A stretch of 47,186 nucleotides of DNA, from positions 62,001 through 109,186 of the forward strand of contig JABANN010000039.1 in the NCBI GenBank assembly GCA_013115125.1. Reading direction: 5' to 3'. Under the pieces are notes generated by a model, which was not told the DNA's origin, searched no databases, and saw nothing but the letters and a program-made list of their open reading frames with translations. The position numbers were made by a program, and so were the translations under genes. This DNA comes from Perkinsus olseni. Its lineage: Eukaryota. Shown piece after piece: positions 145 through 8,700 of this stretch (position 1 is its first letter; each line of letters opens with the position of its first letter).

Positions 145-2533
145 TCATCTTCCACCGAACGTCCGCTGTAGCACGCCCTGTTTCTCGTACTCGCGGGGAC
201 CGAAACCGCCAACGGGGGGTTTGGGACACTGGAACTTCTCCTCGCCCGTGGAGTCTCGGTTGATGTTGAGAGAGAGGATCTTGTTGACGAGCTCTCCTAG
301 GGAGAGTGTAGCGCCGCCCCATGGTATGAATCTGAATACAGAAGCACATTCTCATCACGAAAACCTTCGTTAAGTGAAGCGATTTTCATGGGTTGTTCAC
401 GGCGTTCACCCATGCCTCGCTGGATTTAAAATATGCCCTAGGTTGCACAGCGAACTACAGGGCAGCTACGCGATAATGCGACTACGGCCGTTGCTACATG
501 GCATGGATGGACTCGGAGGCAATCGACGGAAGCTACTCCATCGCACACGACAAGTCGCGTCATATCTTCGATAGGCTAAACTACGGTCCCTTGTCGTAAC
601 CGTCGTACGCGTTGTTCATAAGGAACGGCTGCAGCTCCTTCGTCAGGGCTTCCTGCAGGCTGGTGGTCACGTCGCTGAGACTGATCGAAATCAGACCTGC
701 AATGGCAAATGCTGCTGACTGAAAGTAGACGGTACTCAATCAGCTACCAAGAAACTGTTCCTGAATAGTAATCTGCTGCACTGTGATGTTCTCCACCGTG
801 ATTTGCCGTACGTAAGGATACTCTTCACTGCACACTGACTGCAGCACAACCTACGAGGACCGCCGGCTGTCGAGTCCCAAAGGGCGTGACGGCAGCGAGC
901 CCACCTGGAAGTGCTTGTCTGTCCCGCAGCAGGCGTCCGTGTTGTCCCACAGTTTATCGCATCGCCCCGTGAACCACGTATCAGGTGTAACACACTGTCC
1001 GACGAAAAGTGAGAGCGGCAGCTCACCAATCACGCCTGACCAGAGCCTCTTATCGCCCTACTGAGGAAACAATCAACGCCTTACCTTCGATGCTCAATGC
1101 AAGCCTATTTTCCTTCGGCACCGACAGATAGATATTCTCCAGCTTAGTTGTCTTCAACCCGGTGACCCATCGAGCATTGACCTCATAAACTCGTTCACGG
1201 ACGTAGTAGAGGGAGCTGTTGCCAACACAGGGCTGCGGGGCCAAATGCATGCTGTCCACAGTGCCTGACGAGAAGGGGTATGGCGACGAGTCCTCGCCCG
1301 GATCGACTCACATGCTCCAAGCGAGCTTGGCAATGCCGCTTGCAATGCATTGTTGATTAGAGGAAGGTTCCCTCGCAGCGAGAGATTCTGCCACACATAA
1401 GAAGGATTACAAAGAGGGAATCTTTAGTTGACTTACGATGACGTCGAGGTCGACTGGTGGCATGGTCGTGTGCATGCTCCACACTATGAAGAAGATACCC
1501 CAACTCATGCCCTTGATGATCAGTACCTTAATACACCAAAAGTAAGGGACTGCACCAGACAGAAGGGACGTACCGTGCCCGTCATCCTTTGCAGTAGCCG
1601 CTTCCACAGAGGAGGCACGGCCTTGTCGGCAGCGGCATCGTTGTCACTATCGCTCGCACTCTCGTCCGTGGCTACTATCCGATACTGCGGCTTCTTGCTC
1701 TCTCCAGTAGGCACCGCTCCGCCATCGCCACCAGTAAGCTTCGAGCCTGCCAAGAGCAAGTGAGTACTGCTGCAAAGACCTCAGCTGAATTACCATGAGG
1801 GCTCTCGTATGCCTCGACCTTTCGGCGCCTCGGGCTGTTCACTATAGCCTCCATGTCCACATACTGCTCAACCTTCCGCCTGGCTGCTTCCAGCACAGCA
1901 GGAATCTTTTTCTCTGTGCCCGGGGCTGAGAGTGCCGAATCAGCGACAGATCGGCACCCGGCCACAGAGGACAGCAGCGACCGCTTCCGGTGCAGCTGTT
2001 GCTCGTCAGTAGCCAGCACCGAGCTTTTGCTCCGAGGGAGAGTCGCTCTGAGAGCTACAACTGCTGCCTTCAGTCACACAGCCAACTTACAGCGACTTGG
2101 TCCGTCTCATGAGTGCCTCGGAGGCGGCAGGAGCGACCAGACACGCATTCTGAGCAGCACCCACCAAAAGTTGCCCTTCCTCTATGTCACGCTCATCTCC
2201 AGAACGCCTCGAGACAGTGGGCCTGCGATAACACTGAGAGGGGCAGCAGTGAGGTGACTCACGATATGGGTGGTGAGGACATAGCGGAGGCCACGGCGGA
2301 GGTCGCCTGCTTCTGGGCTCGGCTGGCATTCCGTCTGAGCTCTCGACGGAGGATACGGAAGGTCTGCCACTCCGATGGATCCCTTCGCGAGAGGGAGGTG
2401 ATATCAGTTCCTATCGCGAGTCATTAAGCAGTCCAGAAACATGTGATCTAATAGCTACCGAGCTCGGAACGATTGCCCAGGTCACCGAAGGTTGCAGTGG
2501 CTGATTTAAACATGCCGGCAGGCAGCACCATAG

Positions 2534-2575
<42 letters not shown>

Positions 2576-5500
2576 TCCTCAGCAGAGGCTCAGTCAGAGT
2601 CGCAGTGCTTGAGGGCTCGGCAGCCCCACCACGATCGGGTATGTTGGCTTGGAGCCTCTCTGCCAGGGAGAGGACGTCAGGTCCCTCTGCGGGAAGTGAT
2701 AGCGCTCTTTGGTACCCTGACAGCAGCAACGGAGCTATATACCAGGAACGGTGGGAGGAAACCAGCACGAGACGAGTCGGACTTCCTGCTGGGAATTGCA
2801 TTGACCTACGTCCCGCTGCAGCCGCATCACCACTCCGCTCGACAGCATTGGGTCGATCCGCGATGGCCTTGATGTCGCCCTCCGCCGTGGGCCATCCGAC
2901 TGATGATGCCCGAGACTTAGGGGTGATGCCAAGGTCTCCAACCGGGTACTCAGCGCCTCTCAGGGACTCTTCTTGCTCCTGCATATTCACCGCGAACCAT
3001 CAGCCCCGCCCGCCTCAGACCGTGAGCCTACATGCTCCAGTATTATCATTTCAGTAGCCATCTCCACCACATTCCGTGCCATAGCGTCCATCAGCAGCTC
3101 GTGGGTTTGTGTTGCCAAATCCATAGAGGCCAGGCCTAGGAGAGGAGCTTATCCATCCGGTCACTGCGGATAGACTTACCCGCCATTAACAGGAAGTAAA
3201 AACCGGATAAGAGCCCCGGCGGGGCGTCAGCTCTCAAGGCGTCGAAGGCGTTGAGGGATATCAAGGTAGTGAACATGGCCACGGAGAAAACGTCCATCAT
3301 GGCCCAGTCGCTAATGTAGCTGAGAGGGAGCGTCCAGAGAATGGTTGAGCAGTCGGGAGAGGTACTCACTCGATGAGGTAGAGCAGCCACCGGTAAAAGT
3401 CAGCGCACATGTGGGAGGTCTTATGGCAGGGAAGGACGTGCAGGGTGCCTGACAGGGGCCGCTGATAGGAAAACGACGAAGGGAATGGGGCTCGACCGGC
3501 TATGAATATTCCAGTAACTTGGACACATGGCACCACAAGGGCAAATGCAGCGAAGACGACGGCCGGGATGACGTAGTTGATGCCTCCTCGCTGGCCCACG
3601 AGGACGTCGATCATACCAACTAAAGAGGAAAGGTGGGGAGCTCGAAGCCTATCCTCGAACACCTACAGAGACTAAGCGTGCTCTGTGATACGATGAGGCT
3701 CTCTCTGAACGCGACCTTGACAGTGAGGACCTAAAGGAGTGTCGTCGAACCTCGAGGTGATGCTCGGCCGACCCCCCCCCCCTCCCCCTACACTATGGTA
3801 GAGACTCCAATACAGACCGATATAGAAGGTTATGCAGGCCCCATACAAAAAGAAGGTGTCTAGGGAAAACTCGAAGCCTCGGCAACACCCTCCGCACGTG
3901 AGGATGGATCGACCTACAAAGGAAAGGCTTGCTGCCGCCATGACGCCTCATCAACTTACACAAGGACTGCTTCGCCTTGCCTTGGGCGAAATTGAAGCTG
4001 CTGACCACGCTGGTGACCTCGGAGAGGTCGCCTCCATTGTGCTGCTCCCCTGTACGCGCAGGCCACACTACTAAGGCACCATCCTCGGCCTTGATCTCAG
4101 GAGACTCTCGACCTGCTAGCCGGGGCATCCCGAATGAGCTTCCCATTTGCGGATCTACCAGGTTCTCGATGCTGCTGCTGCTGCTGCTGCTGCTCGCCAT
4201 TGGATGGAGCGGGAGACCGGAAGGCCGCCGGCTCTGAGGCTGCGCCAAAGGATGGTGTCCGGCCTACAACCGCAGCGGCATCGAAGAGGACAGGGTAGCA
4301 GAGGCCTCTGTGCGGAGGGTCGCCGCCGCACCAATACTCGATGGAAAGCCATTTTGGAACCTCCGTTGCAAGGCCGGCCCAAAACGATGCCACATGAGAT
4401 AGCTAATACCAGCTCATGGTCCCACTTCTTACTGATCCGAGCCTGAGTATCTCCTCCACGGTCCTCCACCTCTTCTGCGCTCGAACATGCTCGAGCCCCA
4501 GGGCGAGGAGGCTTGGCCGGAGTGCTTACTCCATCCGGTTCGGGTAATGCCGGGGTTTCTCCTTGCCATTGATACTGAATAGCCACGCTACTTCGAAGTT
4601 GGCACGGTCAGAGCAGTCCCACCTCGCTGTTGGCGCTACGTCCTGCGGGGCGCACGTCCTCTAATGAAGCTTCACCGAAGGGCACCGAAGGGTAGGCCTG
4701 AGCACAACACAGGACCTACCAAAGGGGTCGCGGACCTTAACTACCGCGGTTCTACCGGTAACTACCGGATACACTCGCGAACAACAGGAAAGGGAAACGG
4801 TCCGCCCTTGCAGGTAGAATAGGGGGAATCTCGGCGCTACTGGTCCAAGCCTTCGCTTTTTTCCCGCGAACGTTCAAATCTCACCTCGGGATTCCGAGAA
4901 GAGTTGTGAACTAAACTGGGGTAATCGGCCGGATCAGGAGATCGGCCGGTGATGTTCTTGAAGGCAATCTCCGCCTGTCTATCGTGCATCCATCGAGCCA
5001 GCTGTTGAGCATACAGCGCTTGAGGACGATCAGGCAGCATGGACCACAAAACTTGCGTTGCTGAGGAGAGACACATCCATAGAAAGCTGAGGCTGTCCTC
5101 CCATCTACCTCCAATGCTGAGGAGACAAAATGCTAGATAGTAGTAAAACCCGGTCTGCAAAGTCGTGCGCATGACGTCCTGAAATATGACGATGGTGATA
5201 CGCTACGGAGGGCCGTCGACTGCTGGCCTCACCTGATTGAGGAATGCTACCATTATGACTGTAACGAATATGTCCAACATTTGGTACTTCGCGATGATCC
5301 TGAAAGGGCGGAGCGATGCAAAGCTGACGACGTGGTACGAGGATACTACCGCAGGACAAACATGAGTTGGTGTGCTTTCTCTGGGTAGGTATGACGTATG
5401 ATAAATATGACAAGCATCATCAGAAGCTTCACTATTGGCACTACTACTGAGCAGAGCAAGACGAGGACACCTGAAGGGACCGACACGCATAGGGAAGGGT

Positions 5501-6197
5501 GGAAAGCGACGCGGGCCGGACCTGGGAGGTAAAAGCCTTCTTCGAAGAAGTTCTCCAAGCTCTCTAGTGTAGACTTGGTGATGTCGATCGACCCCTGAAA
5601 TGATGACCTGCAACAAGCCCACCGGTCAAGGACTCGAAGCCGACGCTCAACTTCACGGCTACGAGGAGCTGTTGTTCATCGATAAAAGATGAAGTGCCCG
5701 GTAGTAGAAATGCGTGGTTGAGTGGGCCTCCCAGACCGGAGCTACGAGTTCTCGTTACTACCTGTCCCATAAAGTCGCCCTTAATGGTGACTATAGGCAG
5801 ACTTATGCCTTGGAAAAAGCACGCGTATGCAGTCACTACTAGGAGGAGCAGCACGTTGAATCTGAGGACGAAAAGGTAGCAGAGAAATACTGAGTCCAAC
5901 GGACCACTATCTCTCCCACTACACGCTCGACCAAATTACCCATCCACGATGCTCGCTAGCAGCCGTAATATTATATCCATTACAACCGAGCACCCCCGTG
6001 ACCCGTTAGTACCGTGCAAAGTAGAAGATCTGCAGTGCACACCGCCACAGCAGCCTGAGTACACTCCTGATCACTCTAGCCACAGTGCTCCTATGCTCCT
6101 CCTGTTGTCTCCGTCCTCGTGTCTGGTAGCTCTCGTTACCACCCACCCCTCTTCGAGACGGCGGCAGCGGCGCATCGTCACCGCCAGCGAGGGGCAT
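145..6197 (-). CDS. Multi-exon membrane protein with two PqiA/LetA-like transmembrane domains, long low-complexity linkers (polyS, polyQ) and a C-terminal luminal beta-rich Cys-containing domain
   Basis: Exons encode IIAKYQMLDIFVTVIMVAFL...TLQTGFYYYLAFCLLS (~5310-5120) and YISDWAMMDVFSVAMFTTLISL...LLSGFYFLLMAG (~3320-3180), both matching the PqiA W-S/A-M-x-D-V-F motif and the downstream GF-Y-Y/F helix. The C-terminal exons splice in frame through GT-AG introns down to a last exon FIPWGGATLSLGELVNKILSLN...FGGR with TGA at 145-147. The start ATG at 6197 is tentative. Confidence 0.75.
2535..2573 (-). repeat. CAA(CAG)12 trinucleotide repeat encoding Q13 in the PqiA-like gene linker
   Basis: ctg x12 followed by ttg on the + strand. 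The minus-strand ORF 2448-2990 reads RR-Q13-S. Confidence 0.95.
4171..4194 (-). repeat. (AGC)8 repeat encoding poly-Ser in the PqiA-like gene
   Basis: gct x8 on the + strand. ORF 3793-4248 reads MA-S8-IEN. Confidence 0.9.
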
Positions 6198-6436
6198 GAG
6201 GTCCCTAATTATGACTCTACCACGCGGAAGATTGTCGCCCGATGCAGCTAGAGGTGTCAGAAAGACGCGTACTCCACTATATTACACCGGGAGCCGACGC
6301 CACGCTCGATAATGACCAACTAGAATGAACTCAAGGCTTTATTAGTAAAGACAACAAAGACTCCTCACATCGCGGATGGACACATGCACCATGGCACTGG
6401 TAAATCGCTAGACTTGCAGACGGACCTACGGTTTGT

Positions 6437-8700
6437 ACCGAAGAAGTTCGGCCGTCGTCGTAGCCAACTTCACCACCTGAGGAAGCGGACGTCCCAGCTC
6501 ATTCGCCGGGCATTATGCGACCAAGCCTCGTTGTTGAAGAGCCCGACAGGGTAACACAGTGAGAGTACCATGCAGTCCTGCCCCTCTTCGGCGATGATAC
6601 TGTCCAGAATCTCCGCAGCTCCGTGCTTTAAGAACCACTCTCGGATGCTGAGACCTCAACACTTTCAAGGCGGCATTAGGCCACACCTTGCTACCTTGGC
6701 AACTCTTGCAAATTCGCAACGACCTGTATAACATGCCTAAGCACATGCCTCGCAGGCCTCTCCGTTGTAAGCCTCTCCAAGGCATGTTCGAACAAGTCAG
6801 TGCCCGATTCCCACACCTGCCAAGTACGGATGCAGACAGTCCCCACTGTTACACCGAACAAAATTATCGCTCCTCTTAGTATGACAAAGTAGGACAGCGC
6901 CTGTTGGTCTAGCTCCTATCATACCACACGGACGTATGCACTGGACCACAGGCCAGAGTTTCCCCTCGAGAATCTCTCGAGGGCGCCCCGAGACCCCCAA
7001 AGCCCTCCCATACTACCTCGTACTTCACACTTTTGACTACTGTCAGGCTAGCGGCAAGTGCCCATCCTAAGTCCACCACACCCGGCGGAGAGTCTGGGCT
7101 CATCAACAAGGGGACAACCTTGCCAGTCTGAGTCATAACCAATACGTCCTTCAGGTATCAGTAGTAATCTGGACACTACAAATGTTGTTCCGGCCGCTAT
7201 AGCTTCCTTCGCTTCGGGCCCGACCAGACTCACTTCGACGAGGAAGCGCGAAGTTGATGCCAGAGTAGAATTGGTAGTTGTTGACGGGATTAATAAAGGC
7301 AGCCCAGGGAACTACCGATGATCGAAGCAGGGCTTGAACTTGGGACTTGGTCGAGATCCTACTTTGGCTGCGACTCTTCCTGCGTCACTCGGTCCAACGG
7401 CGACAATGTTGGCCAAAATTTCGAAAACCAACGATCGCACTGAGAGAGACGAGTGGCTCGATCTAGAGTTGCATAAACGAGAGAAAATATGTAGTAGTTT
7501 CGCTCGAGCTGATTTCGGCGACTCATTCGAACAGGCGCTCGAGTCTGCAGCGTATCAAGAAGATGCATTCAGAGGCAACAATTGCAGTCGAGGGAACATG
7601 AGAGAAGGCCGCGACTGGGCAAGGCTCTGAAGACCACTACTGTGTGAGATTGCCGTGATAACAGCCGGCGCCCCTACTGCTGAGAGACGTGGCGATTGTG
7701 CCATTTACAGCACGATCTATGAGGAGAGCTCCTATCGAGAACATGGGAAGAGGCCTACCCGTGCCGATACCCCACGACCAGCTAGCCATTATTACCATCG
7801 CTCCGCTCCTCTTCGGGGCCTAAAGAGCTCCGGAATCTGACCCTATCGTACAGGATCCGTAAGTAGCTAACATCAACGGAATCACACTCCGTCAATTGTC
7901 TCTACCGCGGCTCTACCCAATATCGAACAGTCGAGCTGCTCCTTGGGCGAATCGTGAGACCTCTAGCAGTATTGATGCTGCTGTACGTCGAGTGAGCCTG
8001 TGAAAGAGAGGGGCGACTGAGCGTGGTGGAACCCCCCATCAAAGTTCATGTGGCACCGCAGCAGAAGTCGCCAAGGAAGATACAATAGCTTTCTCACTCT
8101 CGCTCCACAGACACGAGGCGGAGAGCGTCCGAACATTTCGCTTTCAATCTGTCGGGCAGTGGATCGAACAGTTAATGGCAGCAGTTACTCATTGGGTTAT
8201 AACCTCAGGCGAGAATCGAAGCTCACCAGCAACTCGGACTGAAGAGGATCTCCTCTTGTATCAGAGTCTCCAATCTACTCCCCCTGCTAATAATTCCTGC
8301 CCGACCGATAGTGGATCGAGACATCCGATGAATGACCTGGGGGGCGGGCCTCACCGAGGCCGTAGCTGCCTCGAGGGGGCCTACTTTAATGGCGAGCAGT
8401 CTGATGTAGCTGTCCACAAGACCATCAGGCAATCTCGCTTTTTCGATGTTTTGCAAGAATTCGACCAGCATGTCTAGCATACCACAGTCGATCTATATGA
8501 GGAGCTCTACTCAACGACCCGCTCCCCCCTCAGGGCACTACAGCTTCCTGTACAGCCGTTTGCTTTGACAGTCTCTGGTCCAAATGCATAAGGAGATTGA
8601 GTCGTGTAGATCGGAGGGTATCGGGATGCTCGTATTGGTATCTTTCACACCAAGTGAACGCGAGAAATTTGAGTTAGAGACGACCAAATCCACCTACTTC
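6437..8700 (-). CDS. Probable multi-exon hypothetical protein gene(s); boundaries uncertain
   Basis: Short open segments flanked by GT/AG, e.g. LVEFLQNIEKARLPDGLVDSYIRLLAIKVG, DVLVMTQTGKVVPLLMSPD and a terminal VVKLATTTAELLRYKP-stop. No family recognised. Confidence 0.3.

Follow-up and report, generated by a model that had tools for sequence, protein, structure and literature searches.

A window of 47,186 nucleotides of Perkinsus olseni DNA, by which we mean the whole stretch that was analysed, carries on its minus strand a real, expressed gene of 30 exons that encodes a PqiA/LetA transporter followed by a BPI/Der p 7-like domain. We consider it probable (about 0.8) that the product is a TUPA-like lipid transfer protein of Perkinsus, composed of a LetA/PqiA-type domain, a linker, a ninth transmembrane helix (TM9) and an extracytosolic or luminal TULIP domain. 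The original prediction, made from the sequence, had suggested a self-contained PqiA and TULIP machine. This interpretation is supported, but it has already been published for PfTUPA and hence is no longer new.

The predicted bounds of the gene hold: one frame, supported by RNA, runs uninterrupted from an ATG at 6197 to a TGA at 145-147 over 1295 codons (Table 1). The RNA contigs show 29 joints in total, 15 corresponding to introns that were read directly and 14 to introns that were inferred. Every joint of the former group reads CT..AC on the plus strand and occurs in four of four RNA runs. The latter were placed by hand from the coordinates of contig records, depth bins, a loose end at 4113 and the continuity of the frame, and their borders do not come from joints; those of introns 4264-4432, 4575-4622 and 4698-4884 were inferred from depth bins and frame. 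Two contig records together bridge the whole coding sequence. X2 record 5 (2865 nt) leads from position 75 in the 3′ UTR through the C-terminal domain and the linker into the second PqiA repeat (4113), and X1 record 3 (2266 nt) extends from 6218 to about 2586. Run X6 is without contig cover at 4087-4313, a gap that carries no evidential weight. The exon chain that had been proposed is thus borne out by joints present in all four runs and by the open frame, and the C-terminal exons, which might have belonged to a separate gene, are joined to the PqiA part by the contigs, one transcript carrying both.

The spliced model can be aligned over aa 80-1128 to P. marinus PMAR001943 and over aa 621-1295 to P. 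chesapeaki FOL47_009935, and in exon 26 its identity to the proteins of both species is 90-92%. Two Viterbi gene models were dropped because their intron sets conflict with the lengths of the contigs. At the 5′ end the acceptor AG lies at 6218-6217, and upstream of it the RNA contig reads CTTGGCTCA, a sequence absent from the window. In the accessible part of PMC3101222 the PmaSL1 spliced leader is printed as ACCGTAGCCATCTTGGCTCAAG. The spliced-leader tail sets the start of the mRNA 19 nt upstream of the ATG. Towards the 3′ end an unspliced contig (X1 record 1) covers 397-638 at a depth of 16.2 versus 54.4. Retention of the last intron would end the frame at 581-583 (ORF 581-739) and leave the domain 62 aa shorter at its C-terminus.

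Table 1. Features of the gene in the window (plus-strand coordinates)
Feature	Position	Strand	Description	Evidence
Complete CDS	145..6197	-	30 exons, 29 GT-AG introns, 3888 nt, 1295 aa	RNA contigs and assembled open frame
Introns, part 1	332-608, 697-747, 851-904, 1036-1084, 1265-1311, 1388-1436, 1527-1573, 1747-1793, 2048-2090, 2223-2262	-		
Introns, part 2	2411-2458, 2717-2809, 2979-3031, 3136-3179, 3320-3369, 3449-3496, 3620-3666, 3731-3791, 3914-3959, 4113-4158	-		
Introns, part 3	4264-4432, 4575-4622, 4698-4884, 5061-5108, 5179-5232, 5300-5349, 5471-5521, 5595-5761, 5862-6012	-		
Last intron	332..608	-	longest intron, 277 nt	joint 331/609 in four of four runs
5′ UTR and spliced-leader acceptor	6198..6218	-	short 5′ UTR	loose end 6218 in run X6, window sequence, PmaSL1
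PqiA-N module	5032..6065	-	aa 45-215, TM1-TM4, motif AKYQMLDIF	Pfam stretch on P0001, hydropathy
Linker 1	3961..5031	-	aa 216-422, low complexity, polyQ at 4172-4192	
PqiA-C module	3113..3960	-	aa 423-606, TM5-TM8, motif SDWAMMDVF	Pfam on exon 16 and P0001
Linker 2	1574..3112	-	aa 607-1011 (405 aa), predicted cytosolic, low complexity, polyQ at 2538-2576	
TM9	1470..1526	-	aa 1012-1030	hydropathy, flanking residues, helix in models
C-terminal TULIP-like domain	148..1469	-	aa 1031-1295 (265 aa), exons 24-30, 8 Cys	AF2, structure matches, alignment A1

Raw stop-to-stop ORF pieces gave a single weak PqiA match among 12 in Pfam because the exons are short. A search for homologous proteins with window:5203-5625:- as query found none, this being a poor query since exons account for just 23 of its 140 aa. 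Nor was a second copy of the gene found in the 47-kb window by tblastn with the spliced model and 153 database proteins of the C-terminal domain family, a query set that held no MCE protein.

The N-terminal part is a clear PqiA protein. All eight peptide strings quoted in the original prediction are present in the spliced product, including those of its two PqiA-type domains, AKYQMLDIF in exon 5 and SDWAMMDVF in exon 16. Two matches to the Pfam PqiA model had been expected, and two stretches are indeed found on the P. marinus orthologue P0001 with PF04403 (E 1.2e-20, 74.4 bits against a cut-off of 23.8); the best, 117-225, covers PqiA-N and the other PqiA-C, regions in which P0001 is identical to the window at 135/136 and 197/211 positions respectively. 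Exon 16 of the window by itself (3136-3399, minus strand) scores E 2.5e-4 and 21.4 bits, under the cut-off because no more than 46 aa of the domain are included. There is similarity between the halves too, with repeat 2 of P0001 matching repeat 1 of the homologue P0003 at E 2e-4. Hydropathy and sequence give eight hydrophobic helices in two sets, TM5 (aa ~441-462), which is below the hydropathy threshold of 1.5, having been read from the sequence of exon 12. In the model of P0003, which is a 40-48%-identical homologue and not the window protein, there are two four-TM modules with small beta-sheets. The significant profile match and the tandem four-TM modules place the protein among the PqiA/LetA-like transporters. 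There is no CxxC pair before TM1, and a cysteine cluster (C423, C429, C432, C433) lies ahead of TM5; protist LetA relatives without zinc-ribbon domains are described in the accessible part of PMC13017536. Both linkers are disordered, and the X2 contig has a 15-letter in-frame gap within the repeat of linker 2.

The C-terminal part had been described as an extra TM helix followed by an initial helix, long strands, a closing helix and several cysteines, and the strings quoted for it were all recovered: the TM helix VLIIKGMSWGIFFIVWSM in exon 24 (window 1526-1473), the initial helix NLPLINNALQAALP in exon 25, the strands EVNARWVTGLKTTKLENIYL in exon 26, LALSIEGVIGELPLSLFVG in exons 26/27 and VRQITVENITVQQITIQEQ in exon 28, and the closing helix DVTTSLQEALTKELQPFL in exon 29. 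TM9 has a K/R-rich N-side and a D-rich C-side, and is modelled as a helix in the P. chesapeaki domain (residues 2-18) and in P0003 (residues 415-434). Seven of the eight cysteines of the domain are at invariant or nearly invariant cysteine columns of the family alignment A1. The domain is predicted to lie on the extracytosolic or luminal side, given nine TM helices, the positive-inside pattern of TM9, the conserved cysteines and the signal peptides of stand-alone relatives.

An AF2 model of the P. chesapeaki C-terminal domain, which is 92.3% identical to that of the window, was obtained with a pLDDT of 88.0 and a pTM of 0.79. Foldseek with this model gave 17 PDB matches at E <= 0.001, led by Der p 7 (3h4z, 7.3e-6), Takeout, Der f 7, BBP, SPLUNC1 and YceB. 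The resemblance to TULIP, BPI and Takeout proteins suggested at the outset is thus reproduced by the predicted fold: Foldseek and VIA-align matches include Der p 7/Der f 7, BPI, Takeout, JHBP, CETP and LBP, and matches 1-38 of the best 50 are BPI/Takeout/Der p 7/SMP/OrfX-type chains. Most of these 38 are known carriers of lipids or hydrophobic ligands. The model has a long helix in a strongly curved antiparallel beta-sheet, as in the TULIP fold. In six of eight strands a more hydrophobic face alternates with a more polar one, a proxy for a cavity, and together with the fold this strand pattern suggests that a hydrophobic tunnel may be present. ESM Atlas leads for the domain (Grp7_allergen/JHBP/LBP_BPI_CETP) and for P0003 (eukaryotic PqiA clusters) scored 0.84-0.89, under the 0.9 bar. 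TULIP-clan Pfam families gave no match on P0002, and none of the 44 A1 members matched LBP_BPI_CETP, JHBP or Grp7_allergen at E <= 0.1, so that membership of the TULIP group is solely a matter of fold. Searched against PDB sequences, the domain profile returned noise only (best E 0.32).

The domain belongs to a large Cys-rich family that matched no Pfam model in our scans, and phmmer retrieved 172 cluster representatives (50% identity) at E <= 1e-3. PqiA lies N-terminal to the domain in 41 of the 46 long members scanned, 40 of them above the Pfam cut-off, and was not detected in the other five. In general the domain terminates the protein, its end being at most 25 residues from the C-terminus in 53 of 58 database proteins of at least 550 aa; a profile search with A1 for longer proteins gave at least three matches. 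Free forms with a signal peptide also exist, some with an added hydrophobic tail or lectin domain, and these have a signal-peptide-like N-terminus where TM9 stands in the fused forms. Each of the three modules of the compact homologue P0003 (681 aa) shares 40-48% identity with the P. marinus protein. Its model (pLDDT 83.5, pTM 0.79) shows the order 4TM+beta, 4TM+beta, TM9, TULIP, and its best PDB match is E. coli LetA of LetAB (9n8w_A, E 5.9e-8 over 394 columns). None of the long family matches has a Plasmodium-like Asn/Lys-rich composition.

The first description of TUPA-like proteins (TUPALs) dates from 2026 and came from malaria parasites. According to the accessible part of that preprint (bioRxiv 10.64898/2026.09.11.750981), PfTUPA (PF3D7_0214800) consists of PqiA and a lumen-facing C-terminal TULIP-like domain, is necessary to recycle membrane lipids from the digestive vacuole in Plasmodium, has Der p 7 and BPI as its top PDB matches and belongs to the TULIPs by fold only; the C-terminal "ApiTULIP" type is there said to be found only in apicomplexans. 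Perkinsus is not mentioned in the main text. The Perkinsus gene likewise encodes PqiA and a TULIP-like domain in a single polypeptide, the combination which defines a TUPAL. The two proteins share two four-TM PqiA halves followed by one C-terminal TULIP-like domain, Der p 7 and BPI as nearest solved structures, and a cytosolic N-terminus with a luminal C-terminal domain, reported for PfTUPA in the same source and predicted in Perkinsus. What sets the present gene apart is its origin in the Perkinsozoa, together with the great length of the polyQ-bearing linkers, the clear ninth TM helix and the pattern of eight cysteines in its product.

E. coli LetA/PqiA (LetAB, 9n8w) resembles the Perkinsus protein in its two-repeat Pfam PqiA match and is the best match of the P0003 model, whereas the Perkinsus gene is eukaryotic and intron-rich, and its TULIP domain is fused by means of the extra TM helix. 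In contrast to the secreted TULIPs (Der p 7/Der f 7, BPI/LBP/CETP, Takeout/JHBP), with which it shares 6-14% identity and no LBP_BPI_CETP, JHBP or Grp7_allergen Pfam match, the Perkinsus domain is tethered to the membrane, and its conserved cysteine pattern is its own. TULIP and PqiA also occur in one polypeptide in BPI/CETP proteins of protists and amoebae that have a C-terminal PqiA as anchor, for which the accessible text of Wong & Levine 2017 (PMC5507252) proposes a shared lipid ligand. There, however, the TULIP is N-terminal and is recognisable by sequence as a CETP/BPI homologue.

The lipid-transfer mechanism that we propose is drawn from LetAB and PfTUPA, and we infer topology, lipid binding, transport direction and cellular location. 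The N-terminal LetA/PqiA-type domain would form two four-helix tetraspanin-like modules, each bearing a small beta-sheet on the extracytosolic side. Next would come a long, disordered linker in the cytosol, and then TM9 would return the chain across the membrane and so bring the disulfide-rich TULIP domain to the extracytosolic or luminal face. In bacteria, LetB and PqiB sit on the extracytosolic side. The PqiA module would load lipids into the bilayer or remove them from it and exchange them with the tethered TULIP domain, which could collect or hand over lipids in the extracellular space or a vacuole lumen; there would then be no need of an MCE tunnel.

Three other explanations deserve consideration. 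The C-terminal domain might have the shape of a TULIP and yet carry no lipid, serving in adhesion or sensing as a disulfide-stabilised ectodomain, or acting on PqiA as its lid or regulator. We regard this as unlikely: the 38 leading structures are mostly known carriers, and the domain is repeatedly fused to a lipid transporter module (41/46). In addition, the corresponding domain of PfTUPA is reported to be important for function in the accessible part of bioRxiv 10.64898/2026.09.11.750981. It is less probable still that the PqiA module uses a separate MCE or bridge-like partner encoded elsewhere, with the TULIP domain as a mere adaptor. Bacterial PqiA/LetA always act with MCE proteins, and fusions of other LetA-like proteins from protists to bridge-like beta-jellyroll domains are on record (accessible part of PMC13017536), but the TULIP domain is predicted to occupy the side on which a partner would dock and the 47-kb window, searched as above with 153 family proteins and no MCE query, contains no relative of them elsewhere.

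A merger of a neighbouring PqiA gene and a secreted TULIP gene by assembly or annotation would be most improbable. The public models of the relatives are partial (P0001 ends mid-domain and P0002 is without the PqiA part), stand-alone forms of the domain with a signal peptide exist, and a contig may span two genes without there being a single transcript. Against this, the frame is open through all 29 splice junctions and the 405-aa linker, one contig links the PqiA-C module to the 3′ UTR, and the identical collinear fusion recurs in 41/46 long homologues and in compact P0003. A TUPA-like lipid transfer protein therefore remains our preferred reading.

The Perkinsus gene is an additional, non-apicomplexan member of a class already described (the TUPA-like proteins; Wong & Levine 2017). 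PqiA/LetA transporters were previously thought to depend on MCE tunnels, and the TUPA-like class shows eukaryotes having redeployed the membrane module together with a TULIP carrier that is tethered. This complete, RNA-supported Perkinsus member corrects two partial public gene models, that of P. marinus, which merges upstream exons and ends mid-domain, and that of P. chesapeaki, which is without the PqiA half. Since Perkinsus parasitises oysters and clams and scavenges lipids, a role in lipid uptake or recycling is plausible but unproven. Low-confidence Plasmodium models make structural and lipid-binding work hard (accessible part of bioRxiv 10.64898/2026.09.11.750981), and the present compact, well-folding family (pLDDT 84-88) is suited to such studies. 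The occurrence of PqiA followed by a C-terminal TULIP outside the Apicomplexa suggests that this arrangement may be ancestral to the Myzozoa. More tentatively, and with rather less than even confidence, the Cys-rich TULIP family, fused and free, may correspond to ApiTULIP; if so, the PqiA and C-terminal TULIP combination predates the split between apicomplexans and perkinsids/dinoflagellates and did not originate within the Apicomplexa. As for the free forms, they might act as soluble carriers passing lipid to the membrane-bound form, much as LBP does to downstream receptors.

Contigs from four runs (one recorded as RNA, three presumed RNA) were aligned to the window and give 29 joints on the gene. 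Fifteen introns were read directly as joints, each in all four runs, with CT..AC on the plus strand corresponding to GT..AG on the gene strand. The other 14 were placed by constraint, using contig record coordinates, depth bins, the open frame and a loose contig end at 4113, which fixed one intron. By the record coordinates, the stretch 5060–6013 must hold 431 exonic nt and the stretch 2047–2458 must hold 279; the depth bins fit the finished exon model to within 1–2 nt. This model includes 30 exons and 29 GT-AG introns of 40–277 nt (median 49), and its 3888 nt CDS, with a lone stop at the end, encodes 1295 aa. The start codon, an ATG at 6197, and the stop codon at 145–147, both on the minus strand, coincide exactly with the limits of the original prediction (145..6197), and all eight peptides quoted there are present in the spliced product. 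A 2865-nt contig starts in the 3′ UTR, crosses the C-terminal domain and a linker and reaches the second PqiA repeat, and a 2266-nt contig extends from 6218 to about 2586. Since together they span the gene, the modules are bridged by transcripts. The proposed single exon chain is borne out, the PqiA and C-terminal parts being joined by contigs in one open frame: the region is a minus-strand eukaryotic gene with numerous very short introns, one gene with one transcript.

At 6218, an RNA contig of run X6 carries nine extra letters which are absent from the window and which, with the AG at 6218–6217, reproduce the final 11 letters of PmaSL1, the Perkinsus spliced leader, in the sequence given in PMC3101222. 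The mRNA therefore receives its spliced leader by trans-splicing 19 nt ahead of the ATG, which marks the gene off from its upstream neighbour.

For a Perkinsus gene, introns are very dense (29 in a 3.9 kb CDS, 23 of them of 40–61 nt); a survey of 104 Perkinsus genes describes between one and ten introns in those genes that have any (PMC3101222). The last intron, 332–608, is by far the longest (277 nt) and is present as an unspliced copy in a lower-depth contig (397–638). Its retention would stop the protein at 581–583, with loss of the last 62 aa including one conserved Cys.

Features of the gene (window positions) and of its protein product (aa)
Feature	Position	Strand	Evidence
5′ UTR and spliced-leader acceptor	6198–6218	minus	X6 contig tail and PmaSL1 match
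Arg-rich N-terminus	start of protein	minus	
PqiA-N, TM1–4	aa 45–215	minus	
Linker 1, low-complexity, polyQ	aa 216–422	minus	
PqiA-C, TM5–8	aa 423–606	minus	
Linker 2, low-complexity, second polyQ	aa 607–1011	minus	
Ninth TM helix, K/R on N-side, D on C-side	aa 1012–1030	minus	
C-terminal domain, eight Cys	aa 1031–1295	minus	

The two CAG (polyQ) repeats of the linkers lie at 2528–2585 and 4161–4202, and RNA contigs are prone to break at them. An X2 contig carries a 15-letter in-frame gap within the first, which suggests repeat length polymorphism among isolates.

Among eight candidates, two matched exon 26: P. marinus PMAR001943 (1056 aa; 90% identity) and P. chesapeaki FOL47_009935 (662 aa; 92%). 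Over the whole protein model, identity is 73–75% to the former and 69% to the latter. These values place the window in a species of Perkinsus, apparently other than either of these two strains. Judged from these comparisons, both public models are partial. PMAR001943 seems to merge two genes: its first 100 aa map to 6557–7103 (minus), exons of the upstream gene, and it is devoid of TM1 (exon 1 is skipped) and breaks off partway through the TULIP-like domain. The FOL47_009935 model begins after the PqiA part, the entire PqiA half being missing.

The two PqiA domains originally predicted were recovered with the Pfam PqiA model, which matches PMAR001943 in two stretches (E 1.2e-20). This protein is identical to the window modules at 135/136 (PqiA-N) and 197/211 (PqiA-C) positions, and exon 16 of the window alone is also matched directly (E 2.5e-4). 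To stand in for the whole protein, we used 30 full-length relatives to model a compact homologue, P0003 (681 aa); P0003 and the P. marinus protein are collinear, with 40–48% identity in PqiA-N, PqiA-C and TM9 plus domain. In the model (pLDDT 83.5, pTM 0.79), a pair of 4-TM modules, both bearing a small sheet, precedes TM9 and the TULIP domain. When the model is compared with the PDB, a single match reaches E <= 0.001 and ranks first, E. coli LetA in the LetAB complex (9n8w_A; E 5.9e-8, 394 columns); Der p 7/Takeout and TARPs come next.

For the C-terminal domain, Pfam scans yielded no family and a PDB sequence search no relative. A phmmer query against 1.84 billion representatives, made with the domain of P. 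chesapeaki, which agrees with that of the window at 262/284 positions without gaps, gave 172 matches at E <= 1e-3 and 114 at E <= 1e-10. PqiA lies N-terminal to the domain in 41 of the 46 long matches scanned; four of the other five have no family and one has an alginate lyase. The domain is the extreme C-terminus in nearly all long proteins. Its family alignment, A1 (44 members), includes seven invariant or nearly invariant Cys columns, all kept in the window's protein. The fusion of PqiA with this domain is conserved.

AlphaFold2 with A1 gave a model of the P. chesapeaki domain (pLDDT 88.0, pTM 0.79) in which a TM helix leads into a helical hairpin, after which come eight long strands and, last, a long helix; in sequence, most of the strands show an alternating pattern, with one face more hydrophobic and the other more polar. 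Foldseek against the PDB returned 17 matches at E <= 0.001, including Der p 7, Takeout 1, Der f 7, beta-carotene-binding protein, SPLUNC1/BPIFA1 and YceB, with latherin, JHBP, BPI, LBP, CETP and Mmm1/Mdm12 ranked lower, below this set. VIA-align scores were 9.7 for Der f 7 (rmsd 3.7 over 165 residues), 9.4 for Der p 7, 9.3 for BPI (186 residues) and Takeout, 9.1 for CETP, 9.0 for JHBP and 8.6 for LBP, the first 38 of 50 rows listed being TULIP-type chains. TM-scores of 0.17–0.46 and identities of 6–16% imply that the relation is remote. The assignment to a TULIP-like fold is consistent, in line with the TULIP/BPI/Takeout-like layout suggested originally. The finding is real and the original reading is supported.

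A midpoint-rooted FastTree phylogeny was built from the 124 of 154 domain sequences covering at least 190 profile positions. One clade of 33 includes 31 of the 38 proteins resembling a signal peptide plus domain and no fused protein, which argues that free secreted forms probably exist; Perkinsus sequences group with the fused forms. About 31 relatives (within P0018–P0112) are short, with a signal-peptide-like start and without the PqiA part, and several signal-peptide-like relatives end in a Ser/Thr/Pro-rich stretch and a hydrophobic tail (GPI- or TM-like). One A1 member, most likely P0026 judging from its 111-aa tail, carries a D-mannose-binding lectin domain (B_lectin, E 3.3e-9), and P0040 has an alginate lyase domain ahead of a partial copy of the C-terminal domain.

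Wong & Levine 2017 (PMC5507252) described BPI/CETP proteins of protists that are anchored through a PqiA domain at the C-terminus, and LetA-like proteins have been noted in parasites and marine protists (PMC13017536). PfTUPA and the TUPA-like class were defined in a September 2026 preprint (bioRxiv 10.64898/2026.09.11.750981), which reports the single C-terminal "ApiTULIP" type in apicomplexans only and whose main text has no occurrence of Perkinsus. We found no further description in the literature on eukaryotic PqiA with MCE or PqiA with TULIP. PfTUPA and the Perkinsus gene share domain order and best structural matches; the former is apicomplexan whereas the latter belongs to the Perkinsozoa. 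The Perkinsus gene is a further, well-documented representative of the TUPA-like class described shortly before, and not a novel type of system. In the topology we infer, the N-terminus and both linkers would be cytosolic and the TULIP domain extracytosolic, and the PqiA module may swap lipids between the bilayer and the tethered TULIP domain, by analogy with the exchange proposed for LetA-LetB (PMC13017536) and for PfTUPA (bioRxiv 10.64898/2026.09.11.750981).
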